DNA of 32,947 bases from a virus (taxonomy: Duplodnaviria > Heunggongvirae > Uroviricota > Caudoviricetes). Under the pieces are notes generated by a model. The model was not told where the DNA came from. It did not search any database and worked only from the letters and a program-made list of their open reading frames with translations. The stretch lies in IMG/VR virus record IMGVR_UViG_2541047823_000003. The stretch is one strand, 5' to 3'. The position numbers and the translations under genes were made by a program. Positions 22,397 through 25,448 of the stretch are shown here, one piece after another (position 1 is the first letter of the stretch; every line of letters starts with the position of its first letter).

Positions 22397-22526
22397 GTGT
22401 GTCTCCTCGTTTGGTGGAGACAGCATCACAAATACAGGGCGCAAAGGATTTTAAAGCGCGTTAAGAGAGCCGGGGATACGGGATGTGCAGGATAAACGAT
22501 GAATTATTCACAGAGGAGAATACGAT

Positions 22527-23003
22527 ATGACGCACACACTGAATCCGGTCATCACTGTCACTGTGTCCGGTCCTGTGGGCAGCGGTAAAAGTTACGTACT
22601 GGCGCGGATAGAAGAGATGGTGAAACAGGAACTCGGAAACAGCGTCATTGTCGATGCTGCTGACGTGGAGAATGAGCGCCGTATGAATGGCGAAGATCTG
22701 ACGACCTGGCAGAAGCCACGGGGTGGCACAGTGATCAGGCTAGAGGAATACACGGGACAGGGCCTGTTGTCATACGGCGAGGAGCGTATCTGTCGGACGA
22801 ATGAGCTGCTGGATGTTATATGCCCCACGGGCCGGCAACCCTGGATACTGCCCGATGCACTGCATGCCACCATTGCGGCACTGATGACAGTTTACGATCA
22901 GGAGCTGCTCATGAAGGAGTTACGTAAACTCACCGGTCAGCCAACAGAATGTTGTTCGTCTCCGAAGTACGGCAAACAGGAAAACGCCCCGGATAATCCT
23001 TAA
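22527..23003 (+). CDS. Small P-loop NTPase/kinase-like protein, function unknown
   Basis: 158-aa ORF with GAGGAG RBS 7 nt upstream; Walker A at the N-terminus (VTVSGPVGSGKSYV) and a Walker B-like hhhhD (SVIVDAAD); plus strand, divergent from the late operon and convergent with the immunity-region operon. Confidence 0.6.
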   Translation: MTHTLNPVITVTVSGPVGSGKSYVLARIEEMVKQELGNSVIVDAADVENERRMNGEDLTTWQKPRGGTVIRLEEYTGQGLLSYGEERICRTNELLDVICPTGRQPWILPDALHATIAALMTVYDQELLMKELRKLTGQPTECCSSPKYGKQENAPDNP

Positions 23004-23015
23004 GATACCTCCTGA

Positions 23016-23038
23016 ACAGAAACAGCCCTGAAGGGCTG
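23016..23038 (-). terminator. Intrinsic terminator-like hairpin between the convergent genes
   Basis: CAGCCC-tgaa-GGGCTG at 23023-23038; on the minus strand it is followed by TTTCTGTT; sits directly after the stop of the glycine-zipper gene (23041) and 20 nt after the P-loop gene stop. Confidence 0.5.
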
Positions 23039-23040
23039 CA

Positions 23041-23424
23041 CTAAAAAAAGAAGTGTATTATTGCCCAAACAGCTATAACGATGATTCCCAGCCCAAGAGC
23101 CGATTCTAACTTATCTTTGGCAGTCATTTTTACTGTTGTAGCGGGCGCAGGTAAGTCTTGCTGCTGTGGATTTTCTGTTAGTTGTTTACGAGAAGAAACA
23201 TCGCCCCTATTAGTTTGCTTCATGTTGATTACAGATGCGTTATGGGCATTATCAGCAGCAATTGACTGAAGTTTTACAAAAGTTTTTGAATCTGTTTTAG
23301 CCAGAAGTAACCTATTTCCCGTAAACATTGCCTTAAAAGTGATAGTTTTTTTCGTCTTGTCCGCCGCACCAAGCAAACCTCCAATGACCAACCCTGCACC
23401 ACCAAAGATTAATCCACCAAGCAA
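23041..23424 (-). CDS. Glycine-zipper two-helix membrane protein (ORF as called from a TTG; reading frame continues upstream to ATG 23628 across an in-frame TGA)
   Basis: 127 aa; N-terminal glycine zipper (LGGLIFGGAGLVIGGLLGAA) and C-terminal hydrophobic helix (LGLGIIVIAVWAIIHFFF); the called start is TTG inside the zipper helix; upstream in the same frame lie a TGA (23506-23508) and a 40-codon ORF with AGGTGA RBS and ATG at 23626-23628; AT-rich. Confidence 0.5.
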   Translation of the reverse strand: MLGGLIFGGAGLVIGGLLGAADKTKKTITFKAMFTGNRLLLAKTDSKTFVKLQSIAADNAHNASVINMKQTNRGDVSSRKQLTENPQQQDLPAPATTVKMTAKDKLESALGLGIIVIAVWAIIHFFF

Positions 23425-23712
23425 ACCTGCGCCTGCCGCCTTACCTATACGGCTTTCCTCTTCACTATCCGCAAGTTCAATCGATAAAAGCTCTTCTTTC
23501 AGATTTCATACAATATTTTCAGGAAAGCCTTGTTTTGGTTTTTTGGCAAACACGATGGTACCGAACCCCATGCTTGCCCACCCTTTAGGAAAACTTCCTG
23601 CGATAACCTGAATCCCTGCCATGTTCATCACCTTTTACATTAAAATTTCAGAACGCAGCATGATGCCGCCTTTGTCTTTTTTCTGATCCCATGGTAATTC
23701 AGCTGTTATTTT

Positions 23713-24699
23713 CTATTTAAGAATAAAACGGTATTTACTGTCAGGAGTGCTTTGCTGATCAAGTAGCAGTGAACGACATGGAGCAGTCAAAACCCGAGCA
23801 TAACTACCATCAGGGCTTATGTTAATGTAACAAACCTTGCCCTTAACACTATAATTTTCGGGGACGGATGCCTTTGCTGATACAGTAAATTTAAGGGTAT
23901 GCCAGCCCGTTTTTTGCTTGTAGCTTGAAACCGAATGGAAATCATCTGAGTACTTATTTAACCCTGGAAACATGCTGCGCAGTGCGGGGATGGAATCTTC
24001 TATTATTTTATCGTTGGTTTTAATGTTAAAAACGCTGGTTTCAGTAGAAGCTACTGCTTTGGCATTTCCCCATTTACCAGCGAACACAATCATTCCCACG
24101 AAAAATATTGCTACAAGAACTAACACTCCCCCCAACACTACTACATGAGGCTTCCGGCTTCTGGTTGGTACAGTTGCGACTGATTTTGCACCGCTTTCCG
24201 ATGGAGGTGATAGAGTTTTACTCTCATCACGAATATTCAGCAGATCATCAAAATAACCAAACACAGCCTGCAACTGCTCTTTGTCTAGGCCTTTAAGATG
24301 GGTTGTACCGAAATGCTTCAGACAGTATCTGTCACGGTCAAGACGATACCCAGGGTCAGTAAGCGCCATTATTTTGCTGACCAGAAGATTACAGTCCTTC
24401 ATATTCTGGATCTGTTGTGCATATCTCTGAAGGATCTCAACCGCACCATGATAATCAGCCGCAGTCATTTCATTAACTGTTTTGGTATTAAGTTTCGTGT
24501 GGATCGTCATCCATAGCTCGCGCTTACTTTCCCCCAGATCAACCAATTCATCCATCAATCTGTGTAAATCGCGTTTTTGCAGCAACGAAATTGGTTGCTG
24601 GGCCGAAGGAAGTATGTCAGCAGAATAGTTATGAATGGTAACATCACCGCTGACAACGTTACCCACATCCCCGTTAACTGTTTGCTTCTCTTTACTCAT
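23713..24699 (-). CDS. Repressor-coupled single-pass membrane protein, function unknown
   Basis: 328-aa ORF whose ATG overlaps the repressor stop (ATGA, 24696-24699); cytoplasmic N-domain of about 185 aa, one TM helix (HVVVLGGVLVLVAIFFVGMIVFAGKW), C-terminal domain of about 120 aa with two Cys; AT-rich (sampled 60-nt lines give 33-48 percent GC). Confidence 0.6.
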   Translation of the reverse strand: MSKEKQTVNGDVGNVVSGDVTIHNYSADILPSAQQPISLLQKRDLHRLMDELVDLGESKRELWMTIHTKLNTKTVNEMTAADYHGAVEILQRYAQQIQNMKDCNLLVSKIMALTDPGYRLDRDRYCLKHFGTTHLKGLDKEQLQAVFGYFDDLLNIRDESKTLSPPSESGAKSVATVPTRSRKPHVVVLGGVLVLVAIFFVGMIVFAGKWGNAKAVASTETSVFNIKTNDKIIEDSIPALRSMFPGLNKYSDDFHSVSSYKQKTGWHTLKFTVSAKASVPENYSVKGKVCYINISPDGSYARVLTAPCRSLLLDQQSTPDSKYRFILK

Positions 24700-25157
24700 C
24701 TTCTCTTGGTATTTTTGTTCATTATTCCACCTGTTCCTATGGTTACGTTACCTTTGATAACATTCCCCAGAACATCTCCATGAATAACCTGTTCCGCCCG
24801 TTCTCTGGAGGAGCCAGTAGTCAAGGCCGACAAAACTGAACCTTTGACCTGTAATGGTGCCTGCCGGTAGTGCTGCAGTAACTCCATTTCATCACGTGAT
24901 AAAGTTATACCTGATGACTCCCCGGTAAGAATGAACTGTACATTGGCCCCAATTCTTGCAAAGGCTGCAAGTAACTCACCTCCGGGAACAGCAACCCCTC
25001 GTTCATATTTCCCCCACATTTCTCTTGAAACGCCACAAAGGGCTGCTACTTCAGCCTGCTTGAGTGATAACCGCGAACGCTCAGCTTTGAACCGCGACGC
25101 GCAAAGAGAATCAAAATTCACATAAACCTCATTGACAATGAGAACAATAGTTCTCAT
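24696..25157 (-). CDS. XRE-family helix-turn-helix repressor (prophage immunity repressor candidate)
   Basis: 153-aa ORF divergent from the early operon; HTH (LSLKQAEVAALCGVSREMWGKYERGVAVPGGELLAAFARIGANVQFILTG); C-terminal tail HGDVLGNVIKGNVTIGTGG; start codon overlaps the -10 of the early promoter. Confidence 0.7.
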   Translation of the reverse strand: MRTIVLIVNEVYVNFDSLCASRFKAERSRLSLKQAEVAALCGVSREMWGKYERGVAVPGGELLAAFARIGANVQFILTGESSGITLSRDEMELLQHYRQAPLQVKGSVLSALTTGSSRERAEQVIHGDVLGNVIKGNVTIGTGGIMNKNTKRR

Positions 25158-25160
25158 AAT
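25132..25160 (+). promoter_or_regulatory. Early promoter (sigma70-like) with a 16-bp palindromic operator candidate in the spacer
   Basis: TTGACA at 25132-25137, 17-bp spacer, CATAAT at 25155-25160; spacer holds the perfect inverted repeat GAGAACaataGTTCTC (25140-25155); 48 nt upstream of the Ner-like gene ATG with AGGAG RBS. Confidence 0.5.
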
Positions 25161-25207
25161 CTATCACATATAAAACAAACATCATTGCATCAACAAAGGA
25201 GACAACA

Positions 25208-25396
25208 ATGACTTCCGAACAAGTTAAAAATCTCTTCCGTCAGCGTGGTATCACGTTTACCCGCTGGGCCGAAGAACACGGCTACAGCCGCAATGAGGTC
25301 TATCGTGTTCTCAATGGACAGACCAAAGCTCGTTACGGCAAAGCCCATGAAATTGCCGTAAAACTGGGATTAAAACCCACGTCAAATGCGGCATAA
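25208..25396 (+). CDS. Ner/Cro-like small DNA-binding protein
   Basis: 62-aa ORF with strong RBS (aaaggagacaacaATG), first gene of the early operon divergent from the repressor; sequence pattern resembles Mu Ner-type HTH proteins. Confidence 0.55.
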   Translation: MTSEQVKNLFRQRGITFTRWAEEHGYSRNEVYRVLNGQTKARYGKAHEIAVKLGLKPTSNAA

Positions 25397-25448
25397 ATTT
25401 TCCACATATGCAACAGGTTATCACATATTGCAAAAATGGAAATGTGAC

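Follow-up and report, generated by a model that had tools for sequence, protein, structure and literature searches.

How does a transposable prophage hold its transposition genes in check, and which protein reads the palindrome lying inside its early promoter? The question is raised by IMG/VR record IMGVR_UViG_2541047823_000003, a 32,947-nucleotide (nt) stretch of tailed-phage DNA (Duplodnaviria; Heunggongvirae; Uroviricota; Caudoviricetes) that was analysed at full length and is called the window below. In it, a leftward repressor gene and a rightward early operon diverge from a gap of 86 base pairs (bp). We consider, at a probability of about 0.8, that the early promoter (Pe) is switched by a Cro/C1-type repressor of 141 amino acids (aa), read from a GTG codon at 25121. 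The repressor would act at an operator in the promoter spacer (O1), aided by a second site (O2), the whole forming part of an exchangeable cassette.

Early promoter and probable operator

The switch region is built from three elements:
25132 to 25137, plus strand: -35 hexamer of Pe, TTGACA, 6/6 match to the consensus
25155 to 25160, plus strand: -10 hexamer of Pe, CATAAT, 5/6 match to the consensus, with A2 and T6 present
25138 to 25157, no strand assigned: putative operator O1, ATGAGAAC-aata-GTTCTCAT, a perfect dyad with 8-bp arms that is kept symmetric in relatives

The two hexamers are separated by a spacer of 17 nt (ATGAGAACAATAGTTCT, 25138-25154), and Pe scores 11/12 against the sigma-70 consensus. 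It is the sole 11/12 site on both strands of the 32.9-kb window, where two other sites reach 10/12, and the coordinates given for it in the initial annotation are right. The ATG at 25208 has an AAGGAG Shine-Dalgarno (SD) sequence and lies 47 nt beyond the end of the -10 hexamer, and Pe is in the right orientation for the early operon; transcription would start at about 25166-25168, approximately 40 nt before that ATG. The earlier proposal that this promoter drives a Ner-like/transposase operon also holds, as five genes follow Pe on the same strand: the Ner-position gp16 gene and genes for a winged helix-turn-helix (wHTH, IclR-like) regulator, a DUF3102 protein, a DDE transposase, and a B-like ATPase.

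The O1 palindrome (GAGAACaataGTTCTC, with the core GAGAAC-aata-GTTCTC at 25140-25155) occupies the Pe spacer and reaches three bases into the -10 hexamer, spanning approximately -29 to -10 of Pe. Taken alone, such a repeat is unremarkable: the window contains 14 perfect 6-N4-6 palindromes, compared with 8.7 +/- 2.8 in shuffles, and two palindromes with 8-bp arms, compared with 0.7 expected. The exact GAGAAC-N4-GTTCTC form occurs once in the window. The significance of O1 rests on its position in the spacer of a near-consensus promoter and on its conservation in relatives, not on the palindrome itself.

Comparison across related loci

We compared 80 loci carrying relatives of the leftward helix-turn-helix (HTH) repressor, from Enterobacterales, Pseudomonas, Burkholderiales, Rhodocyclales, Neisseriales, and others, taking in each the best divergent site within approximately 340 bp of the repressor start that matched the consensus at 9/12 or better. 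Such a promoter was found in 70 of the 80 loci, usually as TTGACA, 17 nt, and (C/T)ATAAT. Its spacer contained an inverted repeat with at most one mismatch in 58 of these 70 loci and a perfect one in 34, while 22.5% and 1.4%, respectively, of random 22-mers of matching composition did so. The dyad centre occupies two fixed registers upstream of the first base of the -10 hexamer, at 7.5 bp (20 loci, including the window) and at 8.5 bp (24 loci).

Symmetry was also tested cell by cell. In the -7.5 register (19 distinct sequences), 87.5% of cells were symmetric, compared with 65.9 +/- 2.3% after shuffling (0/500), falling to 28-45% when the partner was slid by 1 to 3 positions. The corresponding values in the -8.5 register (25 distinct sequences) were 85.5%, 59.7% (0/500), and 28-44%, and both registers had two-sided changes at 7/8 positions. 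These symmetry figures are somewhat inflated, since the loci were picked by repressor homology, the best promoter and symmetry centre were chosen for each locus, and the sequences are related to one another.

Furthermore, the O1 half-site tracks the recognition helix of the repressor, CGVSREMWGKYERG, as follows:
CGVS-REMWGKYERG (and the REIWG variants of most relatives): GAGAAC..GTTCTC, in E. coli, Pectobacterium, Brenneria, Lonsdalea, Serratia, Pseudomonas, Azonexus, and Methylocaldum
CGIS-REIWGKYERG (L015): GCGAAC..GTTCGC
RETWGKYERG: GAGATC..GATCTC
RETWSRYE: GTGATC..GATCAC
KKSQIDYEK: GGTAAC..GTTACC
KQAQLKYEK: GGTACTC..GAGTACC
KLAQLNYEK: GGTATTC..GAATACC
KRTQISYEQ: GTGCAC..GTGCAC
RRAQLFYEQ: GAGTCC..GGACTC

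GAGAAC is kept from E. coli to Pseudomonas, Azonexus, and Methylocaldum despite diverging flanks. Because the dyad sequence stays constant within a helix class while the flanks diverge, protein recognition is indicated rather than mere pairing potential. The protein at the Ner position does not show this relationship. In L006 and L017, the gp16 proteins are identical at 57/62 residues, and the dyads are of the GAGAAC and GTGATC types, respectively, beside different repressors; L008, L015, L024, and L028 have no gp16/Ner homologue and keep the design of a promoter with a dyad. Comparison of these loci thus strongly supports a dyad that follows the repressor and not the Ner-position protein, and equally strongly supports O1 as the operator of the divergent Cro/C1-type repressor. 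The palindrome had been proposed as a repressor operator from its geometry; the recurrence of the design in 58 of 70 loci, with half-sites that covary and track the recognition helix, bears this out.

A natural variant of the prophage (L086, Logan SRR29495073) has GTTCCC for GTTCTC in the right arm of O1, at the equivalent of 25154. Its dyad has one mismatch, its -10 hexamer is unchanged, and the same asymmetry is found in the Azonexus locus L024; the variant may be a weakened operator. Among the homologous proteins, six (P0003, P0004, P0006, P0021, P0022, and P0025) have C-terminal two-thirds nearly as in the window repressor (RDEMELLQHYRQAPLQVKGS...GNVIKGNVTIG...NKNTKRK) and other N-terminal HTH domains, of the RETWSRYESG or KLAQLNYEKG types. 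It seems that the DNA-binding domain has been exchanged independently of the remaining protein.

Heteroimmune variants in E. coli

Four immunity types occur in E. coli, with differing palindromes at one place: GAGAACaataGTTCTC, GCTCATAATTATGAGC, GGTGAGgTAATCTGCACC, and TATACACgtttGTGTATA. Each of the three other types has its own repressor, -35 hexamer, and dyad:
L003: -35 TTGATA; spacer dyad t-GCTCATAATTATGAGC; -10 AATAAT
L087/L089: -35 TTGACT; spacer dyad GGTGAGgTAATCTGCACC, imperfect; -10 ATAAT
L088: -35 TTGCTT; spacer dyad TATACACgtttGTGTATA; -10 TAAT

Homology in all four types resumes at ATAATCTA, and nucleotide homology to the other immunity types begins exactly at window position 25155/25156 (query 556/557), that is, in the -10 hexamer. 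The -35 hexamer sits on the variable side of this mosaic junction, and the -10 hexamer and early genes on the other. We infer that the -35 hexamer, O1, O2, and the repressor gene are exchanged together as one immunity cassette, whose right junction would be the -10 hexamer.

The replaceable segment spans from a conserved holin gene to the -10 hexamer of Pe (approximately 22445-25154 in the window, 79-2999 in L003). The window version contains a small P-loop ATPase-like open reading frame (ORF), two ORFs without known function, a 328-aa ORF, and the repressor gene. The commoner E. coli type contains other ORFs of unknown function, a DNA adenine methylase gene, and a gene for an unrelated 118-aa repressor.

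Second site and search for further copies

A further site lies beside the switch:
25106 to 25121, no strand assigned: probable second operator O2, GAGAAT-caaa-ATTCAC, a 9/12 match to O1 with its centre 34 bp upstream of that of O1

O2 overlaps repressor codons 1-6, including the GTG start. In 13 of the 23 loci tested, the strongest further match to the O1 of the locus itself was located at an offset of -32 to -34, and the sequence of O2 shifts with the type of O1; for example, GTGATG-aaat-AGTCAC stands beside GTGATC-taaa-AATCAC. L003 has a GCTCATAA half-site over the repressor ATG, approximately 32 bp from its O1. On this positional and sequence agreement, O2 is probably a weaker second operator.

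Additional operator copies at the prophage ends, which the initial annotation suggested looking for, did not appear: there is none with up to two mismatches near either end of the 35.7-kb prophage of E. coli 504838. Within the window, two candidates were considered and rejected. The one-mismatch copy GAGAACctgtGTTCTG (27358-73), which lies in the transposase gene and codes for GENLCSV, is 100% identical in the heteroimmune loci L003 and L001, which have another repressor and operator, and it is thus a coincidence of coding sequence. The GTTCTC/AGAAC half-sites in the Ner-position gene (25273-80 and 25304-16) encode the conserved YRVLNG and are also present in L003.

Repressor gene and its start codon

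The gene from which the proposed regulator would be read, and its ribosome-binding site, are placed as follows:
24696 to 25121, minus strand: repressor gene with revised start GTG 25121, 141 aa, Cro/C1-type HTH, on the basis of the Pfam HTH_31 match and the starts of homologues
25127 to 25130, minus strand: repressor SD sequence GAGG, 5 nt before GTG 25121, adjoining the Pe -35 hexamer on the other strand, in a G-rich stretch kept in relatives

In Pfam, the protein scores 30.5 bits for HTH_31 (cutoff 27) and 23.0 bits for HTH_3 (cutoff 23). It also matches the N-terminal domain of P22 C2 (E = 9e-5), with C2 residues 4-70 aligned to residues 5-70 of the 141-aa form. The Pfam search gave no Peptidase_S24 match for the repressor, and PF00717 was found only in a few distant homologues (P0068, P0069, and P0078).

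The initial annotation had placed the repressor start at the ATG inside the -10 element (25155-25157, minus strand), on a messenger that would be leaderless or weakly translated, like that of lambda cI from PRM. One part of this description is confirmed by reading the sequence: there is no SD sequence before that ATG, as would also be expected of a leaderless messenger. Moreover, the frame is open from it as an ORF of 153 aa (24696-25157, minus strand), PGAP annotates this form, for which MRTIVLIVNEVY would be the N-terminal peptide marking the start, and two called homologues, P0005 and P0016, share the extension MRTxxLIVN. That extension, however, is merely the translation of the dyad plus the -35 hexamer. 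Most homologues, down to approximately 55% identity, begin with MNFDSLCA at the position of GTG 25119-25121, 36 bases (12 codons) inside the ATG 25157 start, and many have an ATG there; the GAGG sequence serves this later start, and the alignment with the P22 C2 domain fits the 141-aa N terminus. In seven loci (L006, L007, and L009-13, from Pectobacterium, Brenneria, and Lonsdalea), the right arm GTTCAC places a TGA stop directly after the equivalent of the ATG. A leaderless messenger would also need a -10 element at a suitable distance, but the minus strand offers no acceptable one 6-8 nt before the ATG; the closest is TATATG, which has no final T and stops 9 nt short of that ATG. Finally, PGAP extends the repressor gene of L087 too far and not that of L089, despite intergenic regions that differ at one base and repressors with one conservative I/V difference in the part read. 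Translation from ATG 25157 is therefore quite unlikely, and the repressor most likely starts at GTG 25121, giving 141 aa, as homologue alignments indicate. The ATG is a by-product of the palindrome on this evidence, the CAT that closes the right arm GTTCTCAT, and not a start codon.

In the RefSeq annotation, the L087 gene (515-973) has a TTG start and runs through the promoter into the gp16 gene, and the L089 gene (515-853) has a short ATG start. N-terminal over-extension across such promoters seems to be a recurrent annotation artefact.

On the other side of the repressor gene, a 328-aa ORF (23713-24699, minus strand) shares 4 nt with the end of that gene, across its stop codon. Database comparison assigns it to phrog_10002, a family of unknown function, and gives a weak match to the N-terminal part of the flagellar regulator Flk; a PADLOC search returned no match for it. 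Its N terminus, NGDVGNVVSGDVTIHN, resembles the C-terminal tail of the repressor, HGDVLGNVIKGNVTIG. The ORF is probably co-transcribed with the repressor gene and may be an accessory or exclusion gene expressed in lysogeny.

Other explanations for the palindrome

Three further readings of the palindrome have to be weighed against a repressor operator. It might be bound by the Ner-position protein gp16 or by the IclR-like regulator instead of the leftward repressor, as a Cro-like operator of the lytic phase. Both HTH proteins are encoded immediately downstream, and Cro-type proteins often share operators with the repressor. Nevertheless, the palindrome changes where the Ner-like protein is nearly constant, as in L006 and L017, and the Ner-like proteins of the window and L003 are 87% identical beside unrelated palindromes. 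Loci devoid of a Ner homologue retain the design, and the mosaic junction places the palindrome on the repressor side. We consider binding by these regulators in place of the repressor very unlikely, and gp16 could still share O1 besides the repressor.

The inverted repeat might instead act mainly as an RNA hairpin within a long leader at the 5' end of the repressor messenger, affecting stability, processing, or masking of the SD sequence. If the region is transcribed leftward, the minus-strand RNA from 25175 to 25112 would fold at -15.6 kcal/mol (z = -2.9), with an 8-bp hairpin just upstream of the SD sequence, and covariation of the arms would be expected for an RNA stem too. Pairing, however, does not account for the half-site sequence, which is constant inside a recognition-helix class and differs from one class to the next, nor for a position locked to the -35 and -10 hexamers on the DNA. 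Few cells show G-T "wobble" pairs, O2 is too imperfect for a hairpin, no Rfam family matched at E <= 1, and no terminator-like site, with its T-run, was found in 23500-26800. The hairpin reading is accordingly held to be as improbable as that of the downstream regulators. Chance is the least credible explanation. Perfect 6-N4-6 palindromes are indeed common in the window, as the count against shuffles indicates, and the hexamers and the palindrome could coincide without any regulatory role. On the contrary, the promoter is the unique 11/12 match in 33 kb, it is located in the sole divergent gap between a regulator and an early operon, and dozens of distant loci show the same architecture, with changes that compensate one another, so that comparative data effectively refute coincidence.

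Repressor promoter and proposed mechanism

The joint reading preferred here is that the repressor controls Pe through O1. It would bind O1 as a dimer. Since O1 fills the spacer from just after the -35 hexamer into the -10 hexamer, bound repressor would exclude RNA polymerase, and this exclusion would keep the transposition and lytic genes silent and confer immunity. O2, over the repressor start codon, probably aids cooperative occupancy, lets the repressor limit its own synthesis, or both. Activation through the spacer in the manner of MerR was rejected by inference: the spacer has the optimal 17 bp and not 19-20 bp, so a protein bound there should repress. The switch mechanism is a conventional one, in which a repressor occludes a promoter.

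The origin of the repressor transcript is the weaker side of this scheme. Because the repressor SD sequence abuts the -35 hexamer on the other strand, the messenger must begin within or beyond Pe. The best local candidate is the following:
25158 to 25166, minus strand: candidate repressor promoter Pc, TG-extended -10 element TGaTAGATT, back-to-back with the Pe -10 hexamer, a weak site found in a lenient scan (7/12 plus TG)

Its predicted start, at approximately 25151, lies inside O1. At the same position, L018 has TGcTATATT and L003 has TGtTAGATT. The candidate sources of the repressor transcript are this weak element, a distal promoter by analogy with B3/Fc02, or both; the scan identified no convincing distal promoter.

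It is important to consider several points that weigh against the proposed switch. The promoter scan for the repressor gave weak candidates alone, namely TG-TAGATT at 25158-66 and two in the gap at 25397-25448, and a Pc start inside O1 leaves continued repressor synthesis in the lysogen unexplained. The O1-O2 spacing of 34 bp is a non-integral number of helical turns, and, because O2 lies over the codons for MNFDSL, coding constraint accounts for part of its conservation. The 153-aa form is the one given by PGAP, and the upstream frame is open from the ATG in the present E. coli lineage, as in P0005 and P0016. To these is added the optimistic selection of loci and symmetry centres described above.

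Prophage setting and early operon

The window is part of a BcepMu-like (Mu-like, transposable) prophage of E. coli. A stretch 100% identical to it occurs in the chromosome of E. coli 504838 and several other strains; in E. coli 504838, a 35.7-kb prophage, annotated as phage, encloses the whole window, and both its ends are outside the window. The early region has 83.6% nucleotide identity to that of Escherichia phage PhiKM, classified in Bcepmuvirus, and a Bcepmuvirus-like assignment agrees with this similarity, with the TIGR04111 match described below, and with the annotated tail, head, and lysis modules. These modules are Mu-like and are on the minus strand of the prophage. The plus-strand early region encodes a DDE (rve) transposase, an AAA+ B-like ATPase, Gam, and Mor, with Pfam matches in the operon to rve (transposase) and AAA_22 (ATPase). 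The gene order is that of a Mu-type early region: a divergent repressor, then the genes of a small regulator, the DDE transposase, and the AAA+ ATPase, and, annotated further downstream where the E. coli locus is identical, Gam and Mor. Among complete E. coli genomes, the early region occurs in 572 of 5426 (approximately 10%), and the present immunity type in 125.

The first gene of the operon is the following:
25208 to 25396, plus strand: early operon gene 1, encoding a 62-aa HTH protein in the Ner position (BcepMu gp16 family), with the SD sequence AAGGAG at 25197-25202

The protein matches TIGR04111 (BcepMu gp16 family) at 94.4 bits (cutoff 34) and phrog_925. It gave no match to the Pfam Ner family and only a sub-threshold one to HTH_31. 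The gene has approximately 70% nucleotide identity to B3 genes labelled "HTH DNA binding protein" or "Ner-like antirepressor."

A 10-mer, TATCACATAT, occurs twice on one strand (25162-25171 and 25419-25428) and nowhere else in the window. One copy is at the predicted start of Pe, and the other precedes the IclR-like wHTH gene, in a gap of 52 bp; there, an imperfect inverted repeat (25399-25442) encloses a direct repeat made up of CACATATgCAA and CACATATtGCAA. Heteroimmune E. coli variants retain the motif as CTAACACATAT, CTATCACACAT, and TTATCACATAT, and it is a candidate binding site for gp16 or the wHTH regulator. Within the DUF3102 gene lies the window's longest perfect palindrome, the 24-bp AAAACGCTCAACGTTGAGCGTTTT (26121-26144). 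Only the identical E. coli loci were found to have it; it is absent from L001 and L003, where the homologous gene is covered, and from L004, where it is partly covered.

The prophage of E. coli 504838 is flanked by IS66-family elements (L085 1-657 and 36363-38978, outside the window). The left-most phage gene in L085, for tail fibre assembly, is annotated as an incomplete pseudogene beside an IS66-family element; consequently, at least one prophage end may be disrupted.

Comparison with known systems

The likeness to repressors of the P22 C2, 434, and lambda type lies in an HTH N-terminal domain similar to that of P22 C2, a dyad of 16-20 bp with an AT-rich centre that is presumably uncontacted, an overlap with the core promoter (occlusion), and a weaker second site. 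There are also clear differences from P22 and lambda. The window repressor has no S24 (LexA-like) peptidase domain, so RecA-stimulated self-cleavage is not expected, and its C-terminal part is unrelated to the C-terminal domains of P22 or lambda. One dyad fills the spacer here, unlike the three tandem operators across two back-to-back promoters there, and the phage is transposable and not lambdoid. The resemblance to lambda cI expressed from PRM, in an SD-less in-frame ATG next to a divergent promoter, is superficial: here relatives do not keep the ATG as a start, an SD sequence precedes a GTG further downstream, and no suitably placed -10 element exists.

Phage Mu (c, O1-O3, Pe/Pc, ner, A, and B) shares the leftward repressor and the rightward operon of a small HTH regulator, a transposase, and an ATPase partner, and the Mu repressor operator likewise overlaps Pe. 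In contrast, the window repressor has a Cro/C1-type HTH, and Mu c belongs to the MuA-I-alpha winged-helix type. The Ner-position protein matches TIGR04111 and not Pfam Ner, the operator here is a simple dyad, and no copies of it were found near the prophage ends.

The B3-like Pseudomonas phages (B3 and Fc02) are alike in the Ner-position gene, with the approximately 70% nucleotide identity to that of B3 given above, and in a short divergent gap. They differ in host, in the rest of the genome (here, BcepMu-type myovirus modules), and in the length of the gap, which is 86 bp here and 106 bp there. Strand-specific RNA sequencing of Fc02 is reported to reveal overlapping pC2 and pE promoters and a distal pC1 that supplies the repressor in the lysogen (PMC9936078). 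By analogy, the pC1/pC2-pE arrangement of Fc02 is a plausible model for the repressor promoter in the window.

The literature searched on the repressors and operators of BcepMu, B3, and D3112 contained no description of O1 or of the family-wide pattern, and none of the B3 and Fc02 operators. The mechanism itself is a textbook one.

Implications

These results identify the lysogeny switch, as read from sequence, for a prophage present in approximately 10% of complete E. coli genomes. They also correct the likely repressor start and define what sets at least four heteroimmune E. coli variants apart. The pairing of recognition helix and dyad could predict superinfection immunity from sequence and be a source of orthogonal repressor/promoter parts. 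A broader reading, tentative and to our minds somewhat short of even odds, is that the family is a natural panel of orthogonal repressor/operator pairs, with at least 20 dyads in two registers on an invariant scaffold of TTGACA, 17 nt, and CATAAT. The panel would follow a near one-residue to one-base code, as exemplified by REMWGK with GAGAAC versus RETWGK with GAGATC, and the -10 hexamer would serve as the recombination joint for the cassettes. If this is true, the orthogonal pairs would yield a testable DNA-recognition code for Cro/C1 HTH domains.

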